Below are positions 3,395 to 50,524 of a DNA stretch of 64,000 bases, one piece after another; position 1 is the first letter of the stretch, and each line of letters begins with the position of its first letter. Under the pieces are notes generated by a model. That model had not been told where the DNA came from, searched no databases, and saw only the letters and a list, made by a program, of their open reading frames with translations. This DNA is from Candidatus Solibacter sp. (GTDB lineage Bacteria > Acidobacteriota > Terriglobia > Terriglobales > Acidobacteriaceae): assembly GCA_035501655.1 (NCBI GenBank), contig DATJVU010000033.1, positions 298,770 to 362,769 on the forward strand, read 5' to 3'. A program made the translations under genes and the position numbers.

Positions 3395-3856
3395 TCACGG
3401 CGAGGGCACCCACTTCACCGCAATCTTCGCGTTCGCCAGCAAGCCGCCCACTATCCCTTTAGTTCGGCGAATTGCCACTCCATCCTGTTCTGACGCGCGA
3501 ACGCCATTTTCCGCGGTCGCCACCACCCGTCCATACGGCCAGTTCGAAGCCGGCAGCTTTGCCAGCGCCGGTAACAACTCATCCGGCTTCAACTCAATTT
3601 CAGCGTTGTCGGCGAAATCGTAGAGCACGACATCATTCGTCCGTACCATGATGTAGGGATTGCGCCACTGCTTCATATTAGTAATGCGCTCGTACCGGGC
3701 AGCGTCGGCAGAGGGAATTGCCTGGAGCAAAGTCGCAGGATCAGGAGCGCTTGGCGCCTTCGGTTGCGAAGAGCAGCCGCTCAGAACGAAGAGAAAAAGA
3801 AGCGCCGAAACCAGCACACAGCCCGGAGATCGAGCCTTTCCCGGTCGAAACATCAC
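3395..3856 (-). CDS. hypothetical lipoprotein
   Basis: 153 aa. Signal peptide with lipobox LLFLFVLSGCSS. No family recognised. Confidence 0.6.
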   Translation of the reverse strand: MMFRPGKARSPGCVLVSALLFLFVLSGCSSQPKAPSAPDPATLLQAIPSADAARYERITNMKQWRNPYIMVRTNDVVLYDFADNAEIELKPDELLPALAKLPASNWPYGRVVATAENGVRASEQDGVAIRRTKGIVGGLLANAKIAVKWVPSP

Positions 3857-5501: not shown

Positions 5502-5759
5502 ATGCCGTCTTACCAAGCCACGATTAGCTCCAAGGGGCAGGTGGTAGTTCCTGCTGAGCTCCGCAAGCGTTTTGGACTTAAAAAGGGGACTCGAGCCATG
5601 TGGAGAGAAGATCGAGGCCAGCTCGTACTCACCTCCTTCGAGCGCATCCTCGACGAAGTCCAGGGATTTTTGAAGCCGCGTCCAGGCGAACCTTCAGCGT
5701 TTGAAGAATCGCTTGCCGAGCGCGAACGGCAACGCAAGCGCGAGCGGGAAGAAGAATAG
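5502..5759 (+). CDS. vapB: AbrB/SpoVT-family antitoxin (VapB-like)
   Basis: MPSYQATISSKGQVVVPAELRKRFGL is a typical SpoVT/AbrB swapped-hairpin N-terminus. Its stop overlaps the start of the PIN gene. Confidence 0.8.
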   Translation: MPSYQATISSKGQVVVPAELRKRFGLKKGTRAMWREDRGQLVLTSFERILDEVQGFLKPRPGEPSAFEESLAERERQRKREREEE

Positions 5760-6202
5760 TGCCTGCCTCTCGCTCTTCGATCCGCCGCTATGTGCTGGAT
5801 GCCAACGCCCTGATCGGATTCTTCGAAGGCCGGCAGCCTGCCGCCGAAAAAGTACGAAGGATGCTGGCAGATGCGCAATACAGTGATCTTCCTCTGTGGA
5901 TGTCGGCAGTCAATTGGGGCGAAGTTTATTACATCGAGTGGCGACGCTACGGCGAAGCGAAAGCGCAGGAAGCAGAGGTCAAGCTTGGCACGCTGCCAAT
6001 CGTTGTAATACCGGCAGACAAAACTCGCGCGACTCGCGCTGCCACAATCAAGCAGAGACACAATCTCGGCTACGCCGATTCTTTCGCCGCGGAACTGGCC
6101 ATCGAGCGCAATGCCTGGCTAGTGACGGCCGATCCGGAGTTCTCGAAAGTAGGAAAAACGCTGGCCGTGTATTGCCTGCCGCGACATGAGCCTAGCCACT
6201 GA
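5759..6202 (+). CDS. vapC: PIN-domain ribonuclease toxin
   Basis: 147 aa. YVLDANALI...ADSFAAELAI...LVTADPEF carries the PIN acidic residues. GTG start overlaps the antitoxin stop (TAGTG). Confidence 0.85.
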   Translation: MPASRSSIRRYVLDANALIGFFEGRQPAAEKVRRMLADAQYSDLPLWMSAVNWGEVYYIEWRRYGEAKAQEAEVKLGTLPIVVIPADKTRATRAATIKQRHNLGYADSFAAELAIERNAWLVTADPEFSKVGKTLAVYCLPRHEPSH

Positions 6203-17420: not shown

Positions 17421-17478
17421 CCTCCCTGTGTATACTGGTGCTAATAAGTAAGTGGGGGGCCCGCACCATCAGCTAACC

Positions 17479-18906
17479 ATGACTCAGGGGGATCAATCCC
17501 AATCCGCGATGCCGGCCCCGCTCAATGCGGGCGGCTCCCCCCACGCCAACCATCTCTCCCTCGAAAACGTCCACAGCTCCGTCGCAGTCCCACATCACGA
17601 GGCCGGTTTCTGGGAGCAGTGGCGAGCCTTCGTCGGCCCCGCCATCCTGGTCAGCGTCGGATACATGGACCCCGGCAACTGGGGCACCGACCTGCAAGGC
17701 GGCGCGCAATTCAAATACGGCCTCTTATGGGTCGTAGGCCTGGCCAGCCTGATGGCCATCTTCATGCAAGTCATCTCCGCCCGCCTCGGCGTAGTAACAG
17801 GAAAAGACCTAGCGCAAGCATGCCGCGACTGGTACCCGTCCTGGACCCGCTGGCCCAACTGGCTGATGAGCGAAATCGCCATCGGAGCCTGCGACCTGGC
17901 AGAAGTCTTAGGCAGCGCGGTAGCGCTAAATCTCCTCTTCCACATCCCGCTCCTATGGGCCGTGATCATCACGGGGCTAGACGTTCTCCTACTGCTAGGC
18001 CTGCAGCGCTTCGGCATGCGCACCATCGAGGCGGTCGTGCTCGTCCTGGTCGCGACCATCGGAGTCTGCTACTTCGTGGAAATTTTCATCCTCCCCGAAA
18101 CTCACCCAAGTTTCCTGGAACTCGGCGCCGCGCTAGTTACCCCTCACTTCCGACAGGCCGGAATGATCTACGTAGCCATCGGCATAATCGGCGCCACCGT
18201 CATGCCGCACAATCTGTATTTGCACTCGGCGCTGGTGCAGAGCCGTCGCCTGCAGAAGGACGACGCCTCCATCCGCCGGGCGCTGCAGTTCAACACCATC
18301 GACTCCGCTGTCGCGTTGACGATCGCTTTTTTTGTAAATGCCGCCATCCTGGTTCTGGCCGCGACCGTTTTCTTCGGAAAACAAAGCGTCGTGGTCCCGG
18401 GAGGCCACATCATCGCCTTCGGCGCCAACAGCGACTGGATTCGGGTGGCTTATCTCACGCTCGCCCCGCTGCTCGGCACGGCCTTTGCCAGCTTGTTGTT
18501 TGCGGTTGCGCTGCTGGCCGCGGGGCAAAGCAGCACGATTACGGGCACGCTCGCCGGGCAAGTTGTGATGGAAGGCTTCATGCACTGGCGCATCAAGCCG
18601 TGGCTGCGGCGCCTGATCACGCGCACTCTCGCGATCTTGCCGGCGGTGCTGGTCATCGGGCTGCGCGGAGACTCCAGCGTCACCGATCTGCTCACGCTGA
18701 GCCAGGTCGTGCTCGCGCTGCAATTGCCGTTCGCCATGTTTCCCCTGCTGCACTTCACTAGCTCGCGCCTCCGCATGGGTAGCTGGCGAAACGGCCGCTT
18801 TCTGCTGGCCGCAGGATGGGCGAGTGCTATCCTGATCGCCGCTATGGACATCTACGGCCTGCCGGACTCGGTTCGCACGGCGTGGCAGTTGATTGTTGGG
18901 GGATGA
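17479..18906 (+). CDS. mntH: NRAMP-family divalent metal (Mn2+/Fe2+) transporter
   Basis: ORF 17452..18906. GPAILVSVGYMDPGNWGTDLQGG and ATVMPHNLYLHS NRAMP signatures. Start is ambiguous (GTG 17452 or ATG 17479). Confidence 0.9.
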   Translation: MTQGDQSQSAMPAPLNAGGSPHANHLSLENVHSSVAVPHHEAGFWEQWRAFVGPAILVSVGYMDPGNWGTDLQGGAQFKYGLLWVVGLASLMAIFMQVISARLGVVTGKDLAQACRDWYPSWTRWPNWLMSEIAIGACDLAEVLGSAVALNLLFHIPLLWAVIITGLDVLLLLGLQRFGMRTIEAVVLVLVATIGVCYFVEIFILPETHPSFLELGAALVTPHFRQAGMIYVAIGIIGATVMPHNLYLHSALVQSRRLQKDDASIRRALQFNTIDSAVALTIAFFVNAAILVLAATVFFGKQSVVVPGGHIIAFGANSDWIRVAYLTLAPLLGTAFASLLFAVALLAAGQSSTITGTLAGQVVMEGFMHWRIKPWLRRLITRTLAILPAVLVIGLRGDSSVTDLLTLSQVVLALQLPFAMFPLLHFTSSRLRMGSWRNGRFLLAAGWASAILIAAMDIYGLPDSVRTAWQLIVGG

Positions 18907-18997
18907 TCGTCGAGGAATGATCGTCGAGGTATGAAAAAGTGTCCTGAAGCTGGGAACTCAACCCGTCTCGCGCGCCCCGATCGATTCACGAACTGAT

Positions 18998-19080
18998 CCA
19001 AAGCCGCGAAGCGGCAAAAGAATGCAGCCCACGGCGCAAGCCGTGGGTATGAGAAAGACAAGGAACAGCCCCGAAGGGGC
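18998..19080 (-). repeat. double-hairpin repeat (CCCACGGC..GCCGTGGG plus GCCCC..GGGGC)
   Basis: Approximate reverse complement of 50438-50524, sharing the core GGCAAAAGAATGCAGCCCACGGCGCAAGCCGTGGGT. Confidence 0.8.
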
Positions 19081-19124
19081 GTAAGAAACCAACTTCGACG
19101 CACGCGCTGATCTGAACAACAACC

Positions 19125-19541
19125 ATGTACGACAAAATTCTCGTCACTCTCGACGGCAGCCCGACCGACCGCGCCATCATCGAGCACGTGAAGCGCCTGG
19201 CCAAGCTCGCCCATAGCCGCCTCGTCCTGCTCCATGTCGCCGACGGATGGGCCGCGCGCACCTACGGCCCCGACGCCGTCAGCCGCGAGATCGCCGAAGA
19301 CACTGCCTATCTCGACAGCGTTCGCGTCGAGTTTCAATCCGAGGGCATCCCTACTGAAGCCGAACTCGCCTACGGCGAGCCCGCCAACGAAATCATCAAC
19401 TGGGTCAAGCAGAAGGGATGCGACCTGGTCGCCATGAGCACGCACGGCCACCGCTTTCTGGCTGACTTTTTTCTGGGCACGACCGCCACGCGCGTGCAGC
19501 ACAACATCAGCGTGCCCGTGTTGCTGCTGCGCGCCCGGTGA
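19125..19541 (+). CDS. universal stress protein (UspA family)
   Basis: 138 aa. MYDKILVTLDGS...LVLLHV...DLVAMSTHGH...GTTATRVQHNISVPVLLL. Confidence 0.9.
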   Translation: MYDKILVTLDGSPTDRAIIEHVKRLAKLAHSRLVLLHVADGWAARTYGPDAVSREIAEDTAYLDSVRVEFQSEGIPTEAELAYGEPANEIINWVKQKGCDLVAMSTHGHRFLADFFLGTTATRVQHNISVPVLLLRAR

Positions 19542-19570
19542 TTGGGACACGAGCGCGCTTCACTTGAGCA

Positions 19571-19654
19571 ATGTCATTCTGAACCCGCGCCAAGCGCTCA
19601 CACATGATGTCATTCCGAACGCGCGCAAAGCGCGGGTGAGGAACCTGCTTTTCC
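19571..19654 (+). repeat. composite GTCAT type-A repeat (half copy + full copy), left flank of the PD-(D/E)XK gene
   Basis: About 90% identical, by eye alignment, to the composite at 20169-20253 in the same orientation. Confidence 0.85.
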
Positions 19655-19669
19655 CCGGCGACGAATCAA

Positions 19670-20140
19670 TCACATCTTCTCCAACTCACCCCGGTCTTTC
19701 CCCAACAGCGCCCACGCCTCCCGATACCCCTCATATTTCGGACGGTTGCGCACTCCTTCAAACTGGCACAGCGTAATCGCCGACTTGCCCTTGTGCCCGG
19801 TGATGCGGTGCGCCGGAATGATGTACCACACCTCCTCCGGAATCACATACCCCACGCAAACATCCAGGTCCCCGGCGCTGTACCGCCGTATCCGCCCGCC
19901 GCTCGAGTGCGTAAACTCGCACAGATATCCCGCCCCCGACTTATAACTGGTCGACTTCACCTGCACCCGCAGCAGCCGCCCGTCTCCCTCCACCCCAACG
20001 TCGTAGGCATAGACCTCTCCCCACGGCTTGAGCACCCGATACCCATGAAACGAAGCCGCCGCCATAAACAACATCTCCACCCAGGCGCCCCGCTCCGAAA
20101 ACGACTTGAACCCAAACAACCCCCGTCTCGCTCGCCCCAT
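19670..20140 (-). CDS. PD-(D/E)XK-type endonuclease-like protein (PDDEXK_5-like)
   Basis: ORF 19670..20269 trimmed to ATG 20140 (GGAG 8 nt upstream), because the rest reads through repeats. YAYDVGVE...LLRVQVKST fits a D...(E/Q)xK nuclease core. Confidence 0.65.
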   Translation of the reverse strand: MGRARRGLFGFKSFSERGAWVEMLFMAAASFHGYRVLKPWGEVYAYDVGVEGDGRLLRVQVKSTSYKSGAGYLCEFTHSSGGRIRRYSAGDLDVCVGYVIPEEVWYIIPAHRITGHKGKSAITLCQFEGVRNRPKYEGYREAWALLGKDRGELEKM

Positions 20141-20168
20141 TTCCACTCCCCCACAGCCACCACTACCC

Positions 20169-20253
20169 GATGTCATTCCGAACCCGCGCAAAGCGTCCCA
20201 CGTGATGTCATTCCGAACCCGCGCAAAGCGCGGGTGAGGAACCTGCTTTTTCC
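20169..20253 (+). repeat. composite GTCAT type-A repeat (half copy + full copy), right flank of the PD-(D/E)XK gene
   Basis: Direct repeat of 19571-19654. Confidence 0.85.
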
Positions 20254-20265
20254 CCACCACGAAGC

Positions 20266-20299
20266 CCAAAAAGCAAAAGGCGCGACCCGTGGCCGCGCC
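20266..20299 (-). terminator. intrinsic terminator (minus strand) at the end of 175-bp repeat copy 1
   Basis: Minus-strand RNA reads GGCGCGGCC-ACG-GGTCGCGCC (9 bp, one G-U) then TTTTGCTTTTTGG. On the plus strand the same position would be an A-C mismatch. Confidence 0.7.
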
Positions 20300-20442
20300 T
20301 TCTTCGCCGAAAAATTTATCCTATATATCCAGACTAGCAAAATCAAAAGGGTAGAGTGGACATGATTGGAGACTTTATATTTCGCCCGTTTTCAACAACT
20401 TACGCCAAAAATGTATCGTCCCACCCCCTTGACAGGATTTTT
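20268..20442 (-). repeat. 175-bp direct repeat, copy 1 (unknown function, candidate ncRNA module)
   Basis: Aligns without net indels to 20609-20783 at roughly 86% identity (hand count of about 24 mismatches). Confidence 0.85.
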
Positions 20443-20606
20443 CCCATTTCGGGAATTGGGCATCACGGAACCGGGAAGGGCACGAGTTTTACTCGTGCCG
20501 AAAGAGCATCGACAACAAGAACCGGCTTTAGCCGCTGCGGGCGTGCTCACTCGCGGCAGCCCGTCAGAAAAATCGTGTAAACGTCCCGTCTGTCCCCATG
20601 TTTTCT

Positions 20607-20640
20607 TCAAAAAGCAAAAGACGCGACCTGTGGCCGCGCC
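20607..20640 (-). terminator. intrinsic terminator (minus strand) at the end of 175-bp repeat copy 2, about 180 nt downstream of the HEPN gene stop
   Basis: Minus-strand RNA reads GGCGCGGCC-ACA-GGTCGCGTC (two G-U pairs) then TTTTGCTTTTTGA. Both substitutions relative to copy 1 keep pairing only on the minus strand. Confidence 0.7.
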
Positions 20641-20783
20641 TTTTGCGCCCAAAAATTTGTCCTATATATCCAGAATAGCAAATTCAAAAGGGTAAAGTGG
20701 ACATGATTGAGAACTTTATATTTCTGGCGTTTTCAATGACTTAAGCCAAAAATGTATCGTCTGACCCCCTTGACAAAATTTTT
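20609..20783 (-). repeat. 175-bp direct repeat, copy 2
   Basis: See copy 1. Conserved blocks include CCTATATATCCAGA, AAAAGGGTA, GTGGACATGATTG, GCCAAAAATGTATCGTC and ACCCCCTTGACA (plus-strand reading). Confidence 0.85.
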
Positions 20784-20820
20784 GTCTCAGGTTGAGAAAA
20801 TGCTAACTTAGCACGCGCTT

Positions 20821-21537
20821 TCAGGCAGTGCGCGCCCGCTGTCCCCTAACACAGTACTGTCGACGATCCACGAAACGCTGGATGTTCTTCAGAATCTGTC
20901 GAATGTACAACACGACTTGGCGTTTTATCTCGATTAGAGCATCCAAAGTGAGGTCGCGCCCGCACTCCTTGAACGACTTCAACCCGTGGGCAAGATTGTT
21001 CCGTTCTTGCCGAACACGGGTTAGGTGATATCCGCCCTTGGTTGAACGGGTCGTCTGGTGCGAAAATCCATATTTCGCGGACAGCTCTCGCACACGTTCT
21101 GCATCCAGATTCCCGCTTATCGGCAACAGCTTTGAGTCGAAAAGAATGCGCTTAGAACTAATCACTAACTCAAGCATTTCGATAACGCGCTTGGCGTTGT
21201 TTTCAGGAAGGCGCATCGGGTCTGGCTTGAATTCATCATGTACCCAGAGTTCGCGGAGCTCTTGACGCAAAACCTCATACTGAACCTTATCAGCCTTAAC
21301 CGAATCGTAAATCTCGTTCAAGCCATTCCGGATCGAACTCTCGACGAGGTTATAGAGTATAAGGAGCGCATTGGCCTTAAGTATCTTGACGAGATCTTCG
21401 CTGATTGCAGCCTGCTTAGTTTTTCTGGCTCGTGGGTAGTGCAGCTTCGCGCCCTTTGCTACCACATCCGCAAGAAATGCGAAATAGACCTCTATCTCTG
21501 AGACTCTTGCTTCGTAATCCAGCAAAAGGAGGTTCAT
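20821..21537 (-). CDS. HEPN-like protein (Rx4H motif), last gene of the dcm-vsr-DUF262 operon
   Basis: 238 aa, mostly helical-looking. RQERNNLAHG contains R-N-N-L-A-H (Rx4H). Its ATG overlaps the DUF262 stop (ATGA). Confidence 0.65.
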   Translation of the reverse strand: MNLLLLDYEARVSEIEVYFAFLADVVAKGAKLHYPRARKTKQAAISEDLVKILKANALLILYNLVESSIRNGLNEIYDSVKADKVQYEVLRQELRELWVHDEFKPDPMRLPENNAKRVIEMLELVISSKRILFDSKLLPISGNLDAERVRELSAKYGFSHQTTRSTKGGYHLTRVRQERNNLAHGLKSFKECGRDLTLDALIEIKRQVVLYIRQILKNIQRFVDRRQYCVRGQRARTA

Positions 21538-22616
21538 ACGGCTGAAAGAAGCATATCGCGAACATACTCTATGCGACCCGTCAAACGTGGTGCAGAGTTA
21601 CTAGCGTGGGTGGTAACTTGATGCTGGAAGTCGCTTGAGTTTATCCACGACATGTCGCGAGGCCTCAAACTCGGATTAATCTGAAGAGCAAGATGCGTCC
21701 CAACAGCGATTGCCTCAAATCGAACACGCGGAGTCGTAGACGCGTGTTGGGTCTTTGCAAACCCGAACGGAAAGAACTTATCGACAAACAATAACATTTC
21801 GGCGAAGGAGCTCACTTTGCTCAGGCGGTCCTTCGCTGCCTCAGGGGTGCTCGTCTTGTAAAAATTGTTCTTCTCCACGACATATGCGTTCAGGAACCTA
21901 GCCACGTCGTGTTTGAATGTCTGATAACGCTCAGCGTACGCAAAAAATCGCAACACCAATTCTTGACGCTCGCCTCGCCGCGCGACGCGCTCATTTATGG
22001 GGCACAGTCGCATAAAGTCTGTTTTCCCTGCGCACTCATCGACTAGTTGATAGAACGGACCCGGATATGCGCCTTTACGCAGTTCAGCATTGCGAAGTGA
22101 GTCGCTTCCGGTATTAATTCTTTCGAAGATATCGAACTTGGAATCCGTCGTCGTGTTATCTGAAAGGACTATCATGCGTAAGGTTCGGTTCTTGAATTTT
22201 CTCTGTTGCGCCGCTGGTAAATCCGAATAGGAGACACCGTTCAACGAATTTAGGCTACCAAGACTTCGAAGGCGGAACCCATCATCCATGAAGGCACTAA
22301 GAGTTCGAATGCGCTGCGCTCCGTCTACGATCTCCAATACTCCTTCAGGGGTTTCGGCTGTAAACATGAATGGAATTGGCAGCCCAAGTATGACTGATTC
22401 TATGAAGCGTGATCTCCGCTCATCGGACCACACGAATTCGCGTTGATAGCGCGGGATCGTGAATTCACCCGCTCGAAACTTGTTTACTAACAATTCGACC
22501 GTGAATTCCTTCGTGTCGTAGTTGATAGTTCGCTGCTTTTCGGCAATTTGCTGCTCGGCGCGCGCAATCTCGGCCGCATCCATGAACAATCGTGCCTGCT
22601 TGGCGATTTGCCGCAC
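21534..22616 (-). CDS. DUF262 (ParB-like nuclease superfamily) protein without a DUF1524/HNH domain
   Basis: 360 aa. FTIPRYQREFVWSDERRSRFIESVILGLPIP and IVDGAQRIRTL (DGQQR-type motif). No His-Me finger seen in the C-terminal half. Confidence 0.85.
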   Translation of the reverse strand: MRQIAKQARLFMDAAEIARAEQQIAEKQRTINYDTKEFTVELLVNKFRAGEFTIPRYQREFVWSDERRSRFIESVILGLPIPFMFTAETPEGVLEIVDGAQRIRTLSAFMDDGFRLRSLGSLNSLNGVSYSDLPAAQQRKFKNRTLRMIVLSDNTTTDSKFDIFERINTGSDSLRNAELRKGAYPGPFYQLVDECAGKTDFMRLCPINERVARRGERQELVLRFFAYAERYQTFKHDVARFLNAYVVEKNNFYKTSTPEAAKDRLSKVSSFAEMLLFVDKFFPFGFAKTQHASTTPRVRFEAIAVGTHLALQINPSLRPRDMSWINSSDFQHQVTTHASNSAPRLTGRIEYVRDMLLSAV

Positions 22617-22621
22617 TCGCT

Positions 22622-23005
22622 TTATTCCTTATTCTTACGCTGTTTCAACATATCCATAATTATTGGGACAATCGTTTGGGGTGGTTCGTGGGCCCAGAAC
22701 CGTCGAGCTATCCAACCGTGTGCGCGCAACACCCGAAGACATCTAACATCACGTCGCCGGTTCTCCGAAAGTTTGTTAGTCCACCAGGTTCGATTTGCCT
22801 TTGGAAGGGTACCGTGATTTGGGCATCCATGCCAAAAGCAACCATCTAAGAAAACGGCAACCTTTTTTCTTGGGAACACGAAATCAGGCTGAATTCTTCG
22901 CCCAGCCAGCACTTGCACATGCATTTTGAACGAGATCCGCAAGCGCTTGAGTTCACTTGCAAGCCGGGTTTCGTTTCCTGTTCCGTATCTCCTGACGGAA
23001 AGCAT
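22622..23005 (-). CDS. vsr: very short patch repair endonuclease
   Basis: 127 aa. PDFVFPRKKVAVFLDGCFWHGC and LSENRRRD blocks typical of Vsr. Confidence 0.85.
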   Translation of the reverse strand: MLSVRRYGTGNETRLASELKRLRISFKMHVQVLAGRRIQPDFVFPRKKVAVFLDGCFWHGCPNHGTLPKANRTWWTNKLSENRRRDVRCLRVLRAHGWIARRFWAHEPPQTIVPIIMDMLKQRKNKE

Positions 23006-23043
23006 TCGTCTGGTTGCATCAAGCGATGACGAGCAAGGCCTCT

Positions 23044-24213
23044 TCAGATCGTACGCTCCTCAAATGTTCGCAAGTGTGCTTCGACAGCATCCAAGAAACC
23101 CGGAGCGAATTTGAGGCTGCTGGCTCTCGCTCGTTGAAGAAATCCAGCGGTCGCAGTATCCGACAGTGGGGTAGTTGGAAACCGTAGAAAAGTATTTAGC
23201 TCGCGGTATCGATGTCGAACGGGATATTCACTCACACGAGACGCGTACACACCGTCGCCGAGGCACCACGCAGCCGTTGGCCAACGTGCGCCGTCCTTAA
23301 GCTTCGGATCGTGCTCAGACTCATAGTGCTTTGGGTGTAAAAGACGACGACCTAGCCAAGCTGAAACTGGCACGCTAACAGCATTTCCCAGCAGGTGCCA
23401 GCGACGAGAAACACTGATTTTTCTCCTTGCGCTGGTCCATCCTGGAGGGAAGCCCTGGAGTCGTTCGGCGTCTCGTATGTTGGGGACGACTATTCCTTCG
23501 TCGCGTTGCCAAATGGCCGGTGGCGAAGCTATGCCGAATGCTGAGCCTCGTTTAAGTGGCGGGATTGCGTTTACGGCCCACCCGACTCCGGTGTTCCCTT
23601 CTGTCCAGTAAAACCCGCAAGCGGACTCCGATGGACTGATCGTGCTCTTCTCAGCATCATCAGTTAGGAGCACGCATCTGGGGTCGTGATGCCTTGACGC
23701 TAGAATGATCACCCGTCGGCGACGCTGAGGAAGTCCGAATGCCCTTGTATCCACGATGCGATAGGCCCATCGGAACCGGAGTTCCTGTAACCGACGCAGT
23801 ATCGTCCTCATCGGGCGACCTCGTTGCAGGTGCAGCATAAAGGGCACATTCTCAAGAACCAGCCACTGGGGGTCACTTTTCTTTAGAAGGCGAAAAACTT
23901 CGTTGATCAGAACCGACTGTGATCCGTCAAGTCCGGCAGTTCGTCCTGCTTGGCTCAGGTCCTGGCATGGAAACCCTGCGGTGACAACTGCGGCATCGGG
24001 CAGAGTTTTGAGAGTTCGAATGTCCGACCAGAATCGAGTCTTAGGAAAGCGCAAACGAAAAATCCTACGTGCCGCTTCATCAATCTCGCATGCAAAAGCA
24101 GTACGGAATCCTGCGCGCTCCAACCCGAGTTCCAAGCCGCCGATGCCCGCGAAAAGTGCTGCTACGGTCGGACGCTTTCCTACCGAGATATGGTGTTTGG
24201 TTTTAGTTAGCAA
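23044..24213 (-). CDS. dcm: DNA (cytosine-5)-methyltransferase
   Basis: 389 aa. Motif I LFAGIGG, IV GFPCQDLS, VI LENVP, VIII QRRRRV, X LGNAVSVP. Confidence 0.92.
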   Translation of the reverse strand: MLTKTKHHISVGKRPTVAALFAGIGGLELGLERAGFRTAFACEIDEAARRIFRLRFPKTRFWSDIRTLKTLPDAAVVTAGFPCQDLSQAGRTAGLDGSQSVLINEVFRLLKKSDPQWLVLENVPFMLHLQRGRPMRTILRRLQELRFRWAYRIVDTRAFGLPQRRRRVIILASRHHDPRCVLLTDDAEKSTISPSESACGFYWTEGNTGVGWAVNAIPPLKRGSAFGIASPPAIWQRDEGIVVPNIRDAERLQGFPPGWTSARRKISVSRRWHLLGNAVSVPVSAWLGRRLLHPKHYESEHDPKLKDGARWPTAAWCLGDGVYASRVSEYPVRHRYRELNTFLRFPTTPLSDTATAGFLQRARASSLKFAPGFLDAVEAHLRTFEERTI

Positions 24214-24393
24214 GATTATCTGTACCGTTTTCCACAGTTAAGAAGGCTTGAGCAAGTCAAGAATCTAACAGGAAAATGGCCTGAAATCACCCTCAAATGT
24301 CAAGAGGGCACTTCAATAGCACGTCTTCGAGGGTTCATCTTAGGAACAAGGGCGGGAACGCTCATACTTGTGGGCGGGGGGGAGCCGACCTTC

Positions 24394-24603
24394 GGGTTTC
24401 GATTTCACTTCCCACAACGAAAATGTGGGTGTCTCGCTCTTGCGTTTTTCAAGGGCGGGCACGATGCTGCTTGTGCCACGAGATTTCGGCGGATTCAAAA
24501 CCTTGCGCTGTCGGCGGCACTGTACCCACGTCTCGCAAATTCGGCGAGACGTGGGGCACCCACATCACTTTTGTTCTCGCGAAATCGAAGACTGGGCTGG
24601 GGC
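24394..24603 (+). repeat. about 210-bp dispersed repeat, copy 1 (TGTGGGTG..CTCTTGCGTTTTT..GGGCGGGCACGATG..GATTCAAAA..TGGGGCACCCAC..GAAATCGAAG)
   Basis: Direct repeat of 25668-25897 (which has one extra internal segment). The two bracket the CDS at 24872-25645. Confidence 0.8.
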
Positions 24604-24663
24604 TCAGCTTGCCCGCACAACGAAAGCCGCGTTGTTTGGGCCATCCGTCCTACGGCGGCGAAA

Positions 24664-24693
24664 GACGCGGGCGGGGGCGCCCGCGCCACATCT
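24664..24693 (+). repeat. REP-like hairpin GACGCGGGCG-GGGG-CGCCCGCGCCACATCT
   Basis: 30/30 identical to 26193-26222. The GCGGGCG/CGCCCGC stem is the same as in the hairpins flanking the RAYT gene. Confidence 0.85.
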
Positions 24694-24793
24694 TGCGTTC
24701 ACTTATCTGCACAGCGAGAATCGCTTGTGTAGGACACTTGTCTCCGGGCAGGATTTCTCAGCGTTTTCCACGGCATTGCAAAATCATTCAGTC

Positions 24794-24822
24794 TTGACGG
24801 TGAGCGGGGGTGAAAGAATAAT
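24794..24822 (+). promoter_or_regulatory. sigma70-like promoter candidate (TTGACG-17 nt-AATAAT)
   Basis: Hexamers at 24794-24799 and 24817-24822. Supports the downstream ATG 24872 (GAGG 8 nt upstream) as the real start. Confidence 0.35.
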
Positions 24823-24871
24823 GTCCGCGTCCAGCCTGAAACATTCCCGCTACTTCCGCGAGGTAAGAATT

Positions 24872-25645
24872 ATGCCGCAGACCCACTCATCGAAAACCGA
24901 TCCAAGCCAAACTTATTCGAGCCAGACCGATCCGAACTACGCTGATTCGAGCCAGACTTATTCGAACCAAGTCAATCCGAAGCGACACGCTTTAAGTTTG
25001 AGTGATCATTTGAACAAGCACCTGCTGGCTTATATGGCTACGGCTAGTGCGGCTGGAGTGAGCATGCTGGCGATGACTCAGCCGGCGGAGGCTACAGTTG
25101 TATATACGCCTGCGCACCGGACTATCGTTTCCGGGGCCCATCTTGATTTAAATGGCGACGGGATTCCCGACTTTACTTTTCAGGCGAATCGCTATATCTG
25201 CGGCACCTGTGGCTACTTTGACGTATTCGCCCCCAAGCCCAATCGAGTCATGAGCTACGGGAGCCCTCAGGCGGCGGGAGTGACGGTCGGACCTCCGGGC
25301 GATAACTTTAAGGGCCATGGGGGCGAGATGGTCAATTGGTGTACCTGTTCGGGAAACGGAGCCACCGGGGGCCCGTGGGTGGGAATTCAGAATGGATACA
25401 TGGGTCTGGAATTCAATATTAAAGGGACGATGCATTTTGGCTGGGCACGTTTTTCTGTGACCGACCAGGGAGCCATCACGCTGACCGGCTTTGCGTACGA
25501 GACGGTTGCGCTCAAACCCATTGTGACTGGAGATACCGGAGGCACGGAGAGCGTCGATTCGTTGGGGCCGGCGGCGGGGACAGAACTTCCACGGTTCGGA
25601 CTTGGACATCTGGCGCTTGGCGCGGTGGGGAAGTTGGGGCGGTAG
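24872..25645 (+). CDS. hypothetical secreted/anchored protein with Q/S/T-rich N-terminal repeats
   Basis: ORF 24368..25645, trimmed because the 5' part is repeat DNA. Hydrophobic LLAYMATASAAGVSMLAMTQPAEA segment. No family recognised. Confidence 0.5.
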   Translation: MPQTHSSKTDPSQTYSSQTDPNYADSSQTYSNQVNPKRHALSLSDHLNKHLLAYMATASAAGVSMLAMTQPAEATVVYTPAHRTIVSGAHLDLNGDGIPDFTFQANRYICGTCGYFDVFAPKPNRVMSYGSPQAAGVTVGPPGDNFKGHGGEMVNWCTCSGNGATGGPWVGIQNGYMGLEFNIKGTMHFGWARFSVTDQGAITLTGFAYETVALKPIVTGDTGGTESVDSLGPAAGTELPRFGLGHLALGAVGKLGR

Positions 25646-25667
25646 GGCCGAGTGATTCGGCCTTTGC

Positions 25668-25897
25668 GGTTTGATTTTTCTTTCCAGTGACATATATGTG
25701 GGTGCCCCGCTCTTGCGTTTTTGGCAAGAGCCTGCCCTGAGCTTGTCGAAGGGGCGGGCACGATGATGCTTGTGGCGGTAGATTTCTGCGGATTCAAAAT
25801 CCCACGCTGTCGGCAGCACTGTTCCCAGCCTTCGCAAAAAACGCGAAGACTGGGGCACCCACTTCATCTTTGTTTCATCGAAATCGAAGGCTGGCCG
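25668..25897 (+). repeat. about 230-bp dispersed repeat, copy 2
   Basis: Direct repeat of 24394-24603. Confidence 0.8.
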
Positions 25898-25995
25898 TCC
25901 CTCTCGTCGTTTGACCCTTCTTTTCTTGCGACTGTAAACTCGAAAGAGAGCACTCAGCATTCAGCATTCATTTGCCAGTGTGAAAGGCAACAGCA

Positions 25996-26021
25996 GGTCC
26001 CTCGACTTCGCTCGGGATGAC
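25996..26021 (-). repeat. GTCAT-family repeat fragment (GTCATCCCGAGCGAAGTCGAGGGACC on the minus strand)
   Basis: Seen just upstream of valS. Confidence 0.6.
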
Positions 26022-26078
26022 AATGCTGGAGGACCTTTCAACTGGCTGATTGCCGACGGCTGAGTGCTGACTGCTTCT

Positions 26079-28895
26079 ATGCCCCACGAACTCCCAAAAG
26101 CTTATGAGCCGGGCGCGATTGAAGCGCGCTGGGCTGAGTACTGGATCAAAGAGAAACTTTTTTCCGTCGCTACGCCTCCGGCTGACGCCGGGGACGCGGG
26201 CGGGGGCGCCCGCGCCACATCTGCGTCCGCACAACCTGTGTTTTCGCTGCTGCTGCCGCCGCCGAATGTGACTGGCAATCTGCATATGGGGCACATGTTC
26301 GAGCAGACACAGATGGACATTATTGTGCGCTGGCATCGGATGCGGGGATTTTTGACGTTGTGGCTTCCGGGCACCGACCATGCGGGCATTGCGACGCAAT
26401 TGATGGTGGAGCGGCAACTGGCGTCGGAAGGCAAGAAGCGCCGCGACCTGGGGCGCGAGAAATTTATTGAGCGCGTGTGGGAGTGGAAGAAGAAGTACGG
26501 CGGAAATATCACCGACCAGATGAAGCGGCTGGGCGCGTCGGTCGACTGGGATCGCGAATATTTCACGATGGATGAAAACTTGTCGCGGGCGGTGCGCGAA
26601 GTTTTTGTCCGGCTGTATGAAGAAGGGCTGATCTATCGCGGGAAGTACATCGTGAACTGGTGCCCGCGCTGCGAGACGGCGATCTCCGATCTCGAAGTGA
26701 AGCATGAGGATGTGCCGGGGAAGCTGTGGGAGATTCGTTATCCCGTGATCGGGACGCCGGCGGATAAGCCAGAGTTTATTACTGTCGCTACCACGCGGCC
26801 GGAGACGATGCTGGGCGATACGGCTATCGCGGTGAATATAAGAGACGAGCGCTACACGCATCTGCACGGCAAGAAAGTTTTGCTGCCGCTGATGGAGCGG
26901 GAGATTCCGATCATCACCGACGAACTGGCGCAGCCGGAGTTTGGCACGGGCGCGGTGAAGGTGACGCCGGCGCATGATCCCAATGACTTTCAGGCTGGAC
27001 TGCGCAACAACCTGCCGCAGATTGAAGTGATGGACGAGAACGCCCGCATGAATCAGAACGCGGGCAAGTATGCCGGGCTGGATCGCTACGAAGCTCGCAA
27101 GCAGGTGCTCGCCGATTTGGAGGCAGGGAATTTTTTAGTTGGGACGAAAGATCACACGCTGCCACTCGGCAAGTGCGATCGCTGCGCCACGGTGGTTGAG
27201 CCGCGGCTGTCGACGCAGTGGTTTATCAAGATTGCGCCCATGGCGAAACGCGCCGCCGACGCGGTCCGCAGCGGCGAGATTACTATCGCGCCAGAAAACA
27301 ATCAGCAAATTTATCTGAACTGGATGGACAACATCCACGACTGGTGCATCTCCCGCCAACTCTGGTGGGGACATCGGGTGCCGGCTTGGCATTGTGCTTG
27401 TGGGGAGATTGTGGTGGCGCGCGAGGCTCCGGCTGCGTGTGGGAAGTGCGGTGGGGCGGTGGAGCAGGATGCGGATGTGCTGGATACGTGGTTTTCTTCG
27501 GGGTTGTTGCCGTTCACTACTTTGGGGTGGCCGGAGAAGACTCGCGATCTGGAGGTTTTTTATCCGACGGCGCTGATGATTACCGGGTTTGACATTTTGT
27601 TTTTCTGGCTGGCGCGGATGATCATGTTCGGCTGCCATTTTATGCGGGGGCATGAGCAGGATCCGGCGATTAAGGCGTCTAGCGGATGGAGTGAGCGCAA
27701 GGATGACGCGGTGCCGTTTCGGCGGGTCTACATTCATGCTTTGGTGCGGGATGCGGACCGGCAGAAGATGTCGAAGACTAAGGGGAATGTGGTCGATCCG
27801 CTGGACATTATTGCTCGCTTTGGAACCGACGCGACTCGGTTTACGCTTGCGGCTATGGCTGCGCCGGGAACCGATATTGCGTTTAACGAGAGTCGCACGG
27901 ATGGGTATCGTGCTTTTGCTAACAAGATTTGGAATGCGGCGCGGTTCATGTTTATGAATGTGGACCGGATCGCGGACCGATCTCCGTGGACTCCGATTAA
28001 GGCAGATTCCGAAATCCTGCATGTTGGTGTTGGTGGTGTTAAGACGGTTGCTCTCGAAGACCGCTGGATTCTTTCGCGATTCAACCGCGTTGCAGCCGAC
28101 GTGAACGATGCGTTGGCGACTTATCGTTTTCACGAAGCGGCGAATCGCATCTACGATTTTTTCTGGGGCGAATTTTGCGACTGGTACTTAGAGTTGATCA
28201 AGCCGCGGCTTATGAACGAAGGGGGCTCTGCCAGGGCTGAAGCTAGCGTTGCGTGTTCTAATCTCGTCAACTTGTTTGAGTCATCGCTGCGCCTTCTGCA
28301 CCCGATCATGCCGTTTATTACGGAAGAAATCTGGCATGCGATGCAAGAGAATAAAACTTCAATCAAGTCCATCGCGTTGACGGCTTATCCGCAGGCCGAT
28401 GAAAAGCAATTTGATCTGGCCGCTGAGACCGAGATGGCGATTTTGCAGGATCTGATCGTGAGCGTTCGGAACTTGCGCGCGGAATTGAAAGTCGAAACCA
28501 AGGCCAAGGTGCCGATCGAAATTTTCGCACACGAGCCCGCGATTCGCAGCCTGATTGAGCAGAACCGCGGCGCGGTGGAGCGGCTAGCTAACGTTGAAAG
28601 TATCGCGTTTGCAGGGGGATCGTTGACCAGCAAGGCTGGCGCGCGCAGCACGGCGCGCTTCGACGTGCATGTAATCTATGAGCGCAAGATTGATGTTGCG
28701 GCTGAGTGCGAGCGGTTGAAGAAAGAGCTGGAGAGAATTGAGAAGGGGATGACGAACGGGCAGAAGCAGCTTAGCAACGAAGGCTTTTTGGCAAAGGCTC
28801 CGGCTGCGATTGTGGAGAACCTGCGCAAGCAGCATCAGGAGTTGGTTGTTTTGCAGGAGAAAACTTTGAGCAAGATGAAGGAGTTGGGTTGCTGA
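26079..28895 (+). CDS. valS: valine--tRNA ligase
   Basis: ORF 26064..28895. [13 protein letters not shown] (HIGH), KMSKTKGN (KMSKS) and a C-terminal coiled coil. ATG 26079 preferred. Confidence 0.97.
26193..26222 (+). repeat. REP-like hairpin embedded in frame in valS (encodes [10 protein letters not shown])
   Basis: Identical 30-mer to the intergenic 24664-24693. Lies in the variable N-terminal linker before PPPNVTG. Confidence 0.8.
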
Positions 28896-50437: not shown

Positions 50438-50524
50438 GCCCCTACGGGGCTTGATTGCATTTTTCGCCTGACCCACGGCTTGCGCCGTGGGCTGCATTCT
50501 TTTGCCGCTCCGCGGCTGGGCTGG
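50438..50524 (+). repeat. double-hairpin repeat, second copy
   Basis: Approximate reverse complement of 18998-19080. Confidence 0.8.

Follow-up and report, generated by a model that had tools for sequence, protein, structure and literature searches.

A candidate promoter-leader-terminator cassette in front of I-Ssp6803I-like nuclease genes of Terriglobia

The question raised by this locus of Candidatus Solibacter sp. is to which gene a pair of similar non-coding units belongs. The units, here called A and B, lie one behind the other on the minus strand of the 64-kb stretch of DNA that was analysed (contig DATJVU010000033.1; hereafter the window), between a HEPN-domain gene of a defence operon on their upstream side and a small PD-(D/E)XK nuclease gene on their downstream side. 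An earlier note on the same DNA had associated them with the defence operon. Comparison with related loci shows instead that the unit belongs to the downstream nuclease gene. It is a conserved and apparently undescribed promoter-leader-terminator cassette of a family of I-Ssp6803I-like nuclease genes in Terriglobia, and its probable mechanism is of a known kind. Our preferred reading, to which we assign a probability of roughly 0.6, is that each repeat is such a cassette of about 180-190 bp and that the nuclease gene would be expressed only via read-through of the cassette's terminator.

The repeat pair and the gene that follows it

Units A and B are direct repeats of 176 nt with 22 mismatches and no indels, or 87.5% identity, as determined by a repeat finder and by direct count; the earlier estimate (175 bp, about 24 mismatches, roughly 86%) was thus close, and the pair is real. 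Within the window the two units match each other at a blastn E-value of 1e-59, and a hidden Markov model (HMM) of the family recovers unit A at 20259-20459 (E 1e-44) and unit B at 20601-20790 (E 8e-43), with no third copy in the 64 kb by either blastn or the HMM. Both units are AT-rich, having GC contents of 44% (A) and 39% (B) vs 58% for the window. No conserved open reading frame (ORF) is shared between A and B, and stops are present in all six frames of both copies, which agrees with the earlier view of the unit as non-coding. A six-codon frame that occurs in both, MSTLPF*, was judged coincidental; it is without a Shine-Dalgarno sequence and is located upstream of the predicted transcription start, in a region that varies across the family. 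The Rfam scan proposed in the earlier note was negative, as no family matched over the unit at E <= 1-10. We also rejected the template and variable repeats of a diversity-generating retroelement, both on the mismatch pattern (the 22 mismatches involve all bases) and on the absence of a reverse transcriptase match among the ten neighbouring ORFs scanned (17452-26975).

The protein encoded downstream of unit A matches Pfam family PF11645 (E 1e-13) and the Protein Data Bank (PDB) entry 2OST, with an E-value of 2.5e-12 from the single sequence and 2e-19 from a profile; for the family profile, 2OST is the sole match of solved structure. This entry is I-Ssp6803I, a PD-(D/E)XK homing endonuclease of the Synechocystis tRNA-fMet group I intron. 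The two proteins, both about 150 aa long, align over nearly their full length and have the YD...VQVKS motif in common, and PADLOC calls the protein of the window a homing endonuclease (HEase, E 1e-13). By homology and retained catalytic motif, the gene is therefore a predicted homing endonuclease gene. No intron or intein was found to house it; by Rfam, the window and typical loci alike are free of group I intron matches.

In order to assess how the unit and the nuclease are associated, related loci were fetched through the neighbouring gene, which proved the working route to homologs (loci are denoted by L numbers). Orthologs of the nuclease with 74-80% protein identity lie near the valyl-tRNA synthetase (ValRS) gene in L130, L131 and L134. 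Each of these loci has one unit, 72-78% identical to A and B, on the strand of the gene and ending 55-177 nt before its start codon. A protein-profile scan of species-representative genomes returned at least 563 relatives. The best 80 loci, fetched for comparison, are nearly all from metagenome-assembled genomes (MAGs) of Terriglobia, several of which have two or more paralogs. All of these loci except L194, 79 in total, gave an nhmmer match to the unit on the strand of the gene, at protein identities of 44-75% and with E-values from 6e-4 to 5e-46, 76 of them below 1e-7. In every fetched locus with a callable ORF, the unit is located upstream of the nuclease gene.

The reverse test started from metagenome contigs that were scanned for the hairpin sequence of the unit alone, and gave 120 loci. 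Full units numbered 54, of which 51 had enough downstream sequence, and a PDDEXK_5 ORF follows in 45 of the 51. The remaining six units (about 12%) are orphans, and transposase genes lie behind three of them, which suggests that the nuclease gene is at times replaced or displaced by insertion elements. Two of these, L305 (minus strand, after 610) and L322 (after 8594), are followed by ORFs of Y1 transposases of the RAYT/IS200-like type (MPEHVHLL...RFYDFNVWS), and the third, L234 (after 115), by an IS1595-like transposase. A further class consists of the 67 of 133 pattern hits that fit the family HMM over the hairpin part alone; the hairpin sequence by itself is thus also an ordinary terminator elsewhere.

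The unit is under constraint. Its mean nucleotide identity is 62% where the mean identity of the proteins is 58%, and a cassette of about 180 bp can still be aligned even though the proteins that it precedes have diverged to about 45-55% identity. On the 3' side of the nuclease gene, no conserved element was found other than scattered repetitive extragenic palindromic (REP) sequences. A phage origin was rejected: among 2.9 million viral contigs the protein has two relatives, both distant and both without the unit. Scans with exact patterns gave no match for ATCATGTCCACTNTACCCTTTTGA in viral contigs, chance matches only for the 15-mer TCTGGATATATAGGA, and no match for TCATGTCCACTNTACCCTTTTG in metagenome contigs, the source contig included; an exact pattern is not sensitive enough to find copies with about 75% identity.

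The family is multi-copy. L216 contains two complete modules of unit plus nuclease gene (2693-2871 and 5678-5869), about 3 kb apart, and several other genomes have two paralogs on one contig. Modules are also present in MAGs labelled Dormibacterota, Verrucomicrobiia, Binatia and Eremiobacterota-like (L147, L176, L192, L198, L201, L202), due either to horizontal transfer or to binning contamination.

Anatomy of the unit in 85 copies

The anatomy of the unit was derived from an alignment of 85 copies, to which the counts in this section refer; coordinates in the window are given in Table 1. The earlier note could see no promoter inside the unit. The family comparison changes this picture, as a motif TGnTAnnnT is conserved at unit-A positions 132-140, about 30 nt ahead of the hairpin, with T132 in 84, G133 in 80, T135 in 84, and A136 and T140 in all 85 copies. 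Read as a -10 hexamer, TAnnnT has A-11 and T-7 as its two invariant bases. An extended -10 test (TG plus at least 4 of the 6 positions of TATAAT) was passed at this one column, by 78 copies, while any other promoter-like position, on either strand, is common to at most 9. The motif has the sequence of a sigma-70 extended -10 element, and the promoter activity and start site that it predicts are in keeping with a conserved flank, T(-1) being present in 84 copies and A(+1) in 82, followed by the conserved sequence AUAGAGWAAA from +1 to +10. From the predicted start to the hairpin the leader is most often 25 nt long (range 11-41 nt), and the predicted terminated RNA would be about 58 nt, with a fold of -24 to -26 kcal/mol for the copies of the window (B: -26). 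The distance from the U-tract to the first in-frame start codon has a median of about 22 nt and is typically about 14-25 nt, leaving the typical locus without room for another promoter.

Three further boxes are conserved upstream of the putative promoter. Every position of the distal box is at least 90% conserved, and in the 85 copies this box has no -10 partner on either strand and no part in any conserved helix. In the A/T-rich box, which reads AAATATTTTT in one subfamily, no variation is seen at A93 and A95 and almost none at A91 and T94; its position and composition suggest an UP element. The proximal box is conserved at T109 (83 copies), C112 (78), T117 (78) and C120-C122 (70-81), and its spacing of 21 nt to the -10 element is too long for a standard -35. 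The upstream part also holds a conserved TAA box, which lies with the distal box at the 5' edge of conservation. Two other promoters were considered and rejected. One is on the plus strand and would use the perfect TTGACA that is the reverse complement of the distal box, for which most copies have no -10 partner. The other is an upstream promoter made of a TATAAA box and a TAAGT/TAACT -35, which has a poor -35 match, lacks T-7 and is a minor possibility only; the TATAAA box fits the position of an UP element better than the role of an upstream -10. Motifs for sigma-54, extracytoplasmic function (ECF) sigma factors, Fur and integration host factor (IHF), and integron attC sites, were looked for by eye only, with no formal test, and nothing convincing was seen.

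Just upstream of the TTGTCAA box there is a small hairpin of 5-6 bp, at 20441-20455 in A (TTCCC-GAAAT-GGGAA) and at about 20784-20797 in B (TCTCA-ACC-TGAGA). It is retained, through compensatory changes, in the closest orthologs (L130, L134, L137, L138, L165) but not in distant paralogs.

The terminator scan of the minus strand called a hairpin plus U-run at 20303-20275 in A and at 20646-20614 in B, as the earlier note had proposed, and the hairpin is conserved in the 85 copies. Its stem is an 11-bp, GC-rich helix, 96.1% of the hairpin cells are paired, and double-sided changes are found in 9 cells, a value reached in 0 of 500 shuffles. One pair, for instance, is GC in 66 copies, GU in 8, AU in 7 and CG in 1, and the apical pair is G-U in 52 of the 85. 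Between A and B themselves, the substitutions at pairs 141/167 and 145/163 retain pairing via G-U on the minus strand only, and pair 150/158 is G-U in both. Over the family, about 89 of 764 hairpin cells are G-U and would be A-C mismatches on the opposite strand, which supports selection on the sense-strand RNA. The U-tract has 7-8 T within 10 nt after the stem in 80 copies. By the criteria of stem, loop and U-tract each copy holds an intrinsic terminator, with termination itself predicted. The earlier argument that the minus strand is the functional one therefore holds up, both in the G-U-only substitutions and in the consensus fold of A and B, which reaches -41 kcal/mol on the minus strand vs -23 kcal/mol on the plus strand.

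The terminator hairpin is the only structure conserved in the 85 copies; neither RNAalifold nor an all-pairs helix scan found covariation or a helix beyond it. The other 130 nt of the unit are made up of blocks of invariant sequence. The earlier note had named a lack of structural covariation among homologs as a result that would count against its proposal. Covariation is indeed lacking outside the terminator hairpin, whereas the hairpin itself covaries. A long-range helix between TCAAGGGGGT and ACCCTTTTGA, which appeared in the consensus fold of A and B with one apparent compensatory change, was rejected because, in L130 and L131, changes in its partner are uncompensated, and because the 85-copy consensus does not contain it.

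Table 1 Units A and B and their surroundings. Positions are those of the window. Start sites, promoter elements and terminators are predictions.
Feature	Position	Strand	Basis
Unit A, full non-coding cassette before the PD-(D/E)XK endonuclease gene (upstream boxes, putative promoter, leader, predicted terminator)	20267..20442	(-)	direct repeat with unit B
Unit B, copy of the cassette, most likely an orphan, without nuclease ORF behind it	20608..20783	(-)	87.5% identity to unit A
Distal box CTGTCAA (family consensus TTGTCAA), 5' edge of conservation	20429..20435 (A), 20770-20776 (B)	(-)	
A/T-rich box AAATATAAAG, UP-element-like, about 50-59 nt before predicted start	20373..20382	(-)	
Proximal box ATGTCCACTCTACCC (nTGnCn...TTTACCC), about 25-39 nt before predicted start	20349..20363	(-)	
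Unit A putative extended -10 element TGCTAGTCT (TGnTAnnnT)	20331..20339	(-)	family alignment column
Unit B putative extended -10 element TGCTATTCT	20672..20680	(-)	same alignment column as A; sequence read directly
Unit A predicted transcription start (A, 7 nt past the -10 hexamer)	20324	(-)	position of the -10 element
Unit B predicted transcription start	20665	(-)	equivalent of 20324 in unit A
Unit A predicted intrinsic terminator, hairpin AGAAGGCGCGGCC-ACG-GGTCGCGCCTTTT, then U-tract	20268..20303	(-)	terminator scan; conservation in 85 copies
Unit B predicted intrinsic terminator, hairpin of 15 pairs and U-tract	20609..20646	(-)	terminator scan
Spacer between the units, dispersed pieces resembling REP sequences or miniature inverted-repeat transposable elements (MITE)	20443..20607	(-)	blastn of spacer
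Two REP-like repeats of ~35 nt between unit A terminator and nuclease start codon	20169..20263	(-)	repeat families
PD-(D/E)XK endonuclease gene, 156 aa, Pfam PDDEXK_5, I-Ssp6803I homolog	19670..20140	(-)	Pfam, PDB, PADLOC
HEPN_MAE_28990 gene, upstream neighbour of unit B, outside the element	20821..21537	(-)	Pfam
DUF262/GmrSD_N gene (NsnA-like in PADLOC)	21534-22616	(-)	
Vsr gene	22622-23005	(-)	
Dcm methylase gene	23044-24213	(-)	

Proposed operation and competing explanations

In the reading that we prefer, RNA polymerase would start at the predicted site of each unit (Table 1) and transcription would mostly end at the terminator, giving a short RNA of about 58 nt, while the nuclease ORF would be carried by read-through transcripts only. 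A potentially toxic DNA endonuclease would in this way be held at a low or conditional level. The cassette would have been duplicated within the lineage, with A still standing before the nuclease gene, its leader having received two REP insertions, and with B left as an orphan that has only REP-like DNA behind it. Among the 85 copies, A and B are the nearest relatives of each other (87.5% vs at most 76% to others), so the duplication is specific to this lineage. The duplicated stretch begins at the A-tract ahead of TTGTCAA and ends where the U-tract ends, which are exactly the limits of the unit conserved in the family, and a tandem pair of units was seen only here among about 130 loci. The spacer behind B was examined as a remnant of a nuclease gene (ATGGGG... 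start) and rejected, with blastx E > 0.2 and the matching part lying in a dispersed repeat; there being no significant nuclease remnant after it, B is an orphan cassette. Copy A is most likely the working copy and copy B a lineage-specific orphan.

Several points weigh against this interpretation. The 80 genome loci were chosen via the protein, and the reverse test was seeded on a hairpin sequence that is matched by about 60% of the known copies. The hexamer of unit A itself, TAGTCT, fits 3 of 6 positions and has a unique G at position 137, a generic promoter scan of 19500-21000 found nothing, and there is no recognisable -35 element at proper spacing. Promoter activity, start site, termination and its efficiency, and control by read-through are all deduced from sequence. 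Three conserved upstream boxes (the proximal, TAA and distal ones) are unexplained, which leaves the regulatory logic incomplete. A promoter placed right before a strong terminator would be unusual if expression of the gene were its sole purpose, and the near-invariant stem and the conserved start of the leader could mean that the element does more, for instance as a functional RNA or as a site for protein binding.

In the earlier note the repeats were explained as modules of 3'UTR and terminator, or as genes for small RNAs, with a functional link to the DUF262-HEPN defence system. The order on the minus strand is Dcm, Vsr, DUF262, HEPN, unit B, a 165-nt spacer, unit A, two REPs and the nuclease gene; B starts 38 nt past the HEPN stop codon on the same strand and carries the only predicted terminator downstream of the operon. 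However, the identical HEPN protein was found in the same organism only, and its relatives at 76-82% protein identity occur in four contexts (L124, L127, L128, L129), in all of which the unit is absent by blastn and family HMM (six loci, 40.8 kb). The DNA homology to the window in these metagenomic contigs (67-72%) extends in L124, L127 and L129 from inside the Dcm gene and ends at the HEPN stop codon, and in L128 it is limited to the DUF262-HEPN part. The unit goes with a different gene family in about 130 independent loci, so the expectation that it would travel with DUF262-HEPN is not borne out. What stands of the proposal is that B is in effect the 3' end of the operon and that a short RNA is plausible; what does not stand is the association. 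The terminator of B would now end the HEPN operon because the Dcm-Vsr-DUF262-HEPN cassette adjoins B on its upstream side, and this termination would be an accident of position. The note had also allowed that the unit might turn out to be a common dispersed repeat unrelated to the operon. It is common and unrelated to the operon, yet it is a cassette linked to a gene rather than a freely dispersed repeat. We regard the tie to the defence system as very nearly untenable. Slightly less improbable, while still very unlikely, is that the whole 176 nt would form a structured cis-regulatory RNA, either a riboswitch or a protein-binding leader, with control over the terminator. The unit does lie in the 5' region of a gene with a terminator at its end, single-sequence folds of the minus strand are a little more stable than those of shuffled sequences (A, z = -2.6; B, z = -3.3), and one apparent compensatory change was noted between A and B. 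Against it, the terminator is the only helix kept in the 85 copies, the long-range helix is broken in two orthologs, conservation lies in invariant sequence blocks with a promoter signature mid-unit, and no Rfam family matches.

Two other explanations can coexist with the cassette reading. In one of them, for which we see a small chance, the RNA of about 58 nt would have a function of its own and act on the nuclease or on the mRNA for it, either as antitoxin or as regulator, much as in type III toxin-antitoxin systems (ToxIN, CptIN, TenpIN), and B would be an extra antitoxin gene. The order of promoter, short non-coding RNA, Rho-independent terminator and nuclease ORF is the type III architecture, which yields an excess of RNA over toxin; the terminator is located between RNA gene and ORF (median about 22 nt before the start codon) as in those systems, conservation of the stem and of the first 10 nucleotides of the RNA exceeds what a promoter or terminator alone would need, and orphan units persist in some genomes. 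Type III systems, however, have an array of 34-36-nt repeats, whereas no tandem repeats were found in 19500-21000 or inside the unit, most loci have a single unit, and the two 176-nt repeats of the window are whole cassettes, 341 bp apart and exceptional in the family. The protein is a PDDEXK_5 homolog of a DNA homing endonuclease and not an endoribonuclease of the ToxN/AbiQ/CptN/TenpN type, the length of the leader varies and insertions in it are tolerated, and the hairpin sequence also stands alone as an ordinary terminator. Alternatively, the boxes and a 25-bp pseudo-palindrome could be DNA sites for the endonuclease, either an autorepression operator or a protected remnant of its homing site, in a selfish, free-standing homing endonuclease module that multiplied in Terriglobia; this we consider doubtful to a similar degree. 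The tetrameric I-Ssp6803I has a pseudo-palindrome of 23 bp as its recognition site (PMC3384342), and the homing endonuclease I-TevI uses an operator to repress its own promoter (PMC2988022; Edgell, Gibb and Belfort 2010). The several paralogs on single contigs, the number of relatives among species representatives, the variable hotspot upstream of the unit in orthologous loci and the coincidence of the A/B duplication with the unit boundaries point in the same direction. A DNA palindrome would have mismatches where the stem has G-U pairs, above all at the apical one, which argues that selection is on RNA; moreover, there is no conserved element 3' of the gene, the two viral relatives are without the unit, and neither an intron context nor a group I intron match was found. 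A combination of both would be an undescribed RNA-plus-nuclease module, in which an excess of the ~58-nt RNA would control a selfish DNA endonuclease multiplied in Terriglobia, orphans would be stand-alone regulators and the upstream hotspot would capture defence cassettes. The control could then be exerted by an antitoxin-like RNA, or by a decoy or operator for the nuclease. This, too, we hold as a speculative and rather unlikely extension.

Known systems, neighbouring genes and repeats

Among known systems, the free-standing and intron-encoded homing endonuclease genes of phage T4 and its relatives (mobE, segF, segB, I-TevI, seg43(25)) are controlled by promoters, by intrinsic terminators and by stable hairpins that lie at the ribosome-binding site or just ahead of it (PMC2988022); the hairpin of seg43(25) is very stable and directly precedes the ribosome-binding site without sequestering it (PMC2988022). 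The likeness consists in a small nuclease gene under tight, multilayer control, which is here predicted from sequence. The genes described here differ in being chromosomal in Acidobacteria and of the PD-(D/E)XK fold, in having the putative promoter upstream of the terminator within one conserved cassette, and in a cassette sequence that has been kept in hundreds of paralogs and orthologs. With respect to I-Ssp6803I, the acidobacterial genes have no intron context and come with their own promoter-terminator cassette, any target sites and homing of theirs being putative. The arrangement also resembles leader-terminator attenuators, in which a promoter and a short leader with an intrinsic terminator precede the gene, although the leader of 25 nt has neither a leader peptide nor an alternative antiterminator structure as in classical attenuators. 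Finally, two similar promoter-to-terminator units about 340 bp apart are reminiscent of tandem sibling small-RNA genes (PrrF1/PrrF2, OmrA/OmrB), except that tandem duplication is not a feature of the unit family.

With this result, a tempting but wrong link from the HEPN defence operon to two candidate small RNAs falls away. In its place there is an apparently undescribed conserved element before an I-Ssp6803I-like gene in 79 of 80 acidobacterial loci (the best 80 of at least 563 relatives), and the cassette can serve as a marker for annotating such loci in soil Acidobacteria, where to our knowledge regulatory elements are almost unknown. It would be a natural case in which a potentially toxic nuclease is controlled by the order of promoter, terminator and then gene, and it predicts a transcript of ~58 nt. 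An interaction of the nuclease with the RNA or with the palindrome would extend toxin-antitoxin or homing-endonuclease biology to a new fold and a new phylum.

The four genes upstream of B (20821-24213) form a block of about 49% GC, vs about 60% in the flanks, which looks like a mobile, methylase-linked defence module. In L124 and L127, the related cassette comes directly after a long Cas1 gene (505-515 aa). The stretch from ValRS to the nuclease cassette (~20140-26064 in the window) has different genes in each of L130, L131 and L134, its contents in these orthologous loci being a PKD/peptidase protein, hypothetical proteins, or nothing; the DNA that adjoins the unit upstream looks like a hotspot of variable insertion.

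The hairpin that the earlier note saw in the spacer (GGGCACGAG-TTTT-ACTCGTGCC) is present, but it is part of a dispersed repeat of ~70 nt (20470-20540). Copies of this repeat, 77-85% identical and in both orientations, were found in L176, L188, L192, L202 (twice) and L212, which are unrelated acidobacterial loci. The REP of ~35 nt, GATGTCATTCCGAACCCGCGCAAAGCG(CGGGTGAGGAACCTGC), occurs in pairs, with further copies at 1479-1527 and 19570-19665. Such pairs lie on both sides of the nuclease gene and, in one case, are inserted in its 5' leader. In most family members the start codon comes directly after the U-tract.

Matches to the Acido-Lenti-1 RNA (RF01687), all above the gathering score, are located at 19002-19047 (-) and 50472-50517 (+) of the window and at 3593-3638 (-) of L163. 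One of those in the window is about 620 nt downstream of the nuclease gene, and the match in L163 is just downstream of a paralogous nuclease gene.

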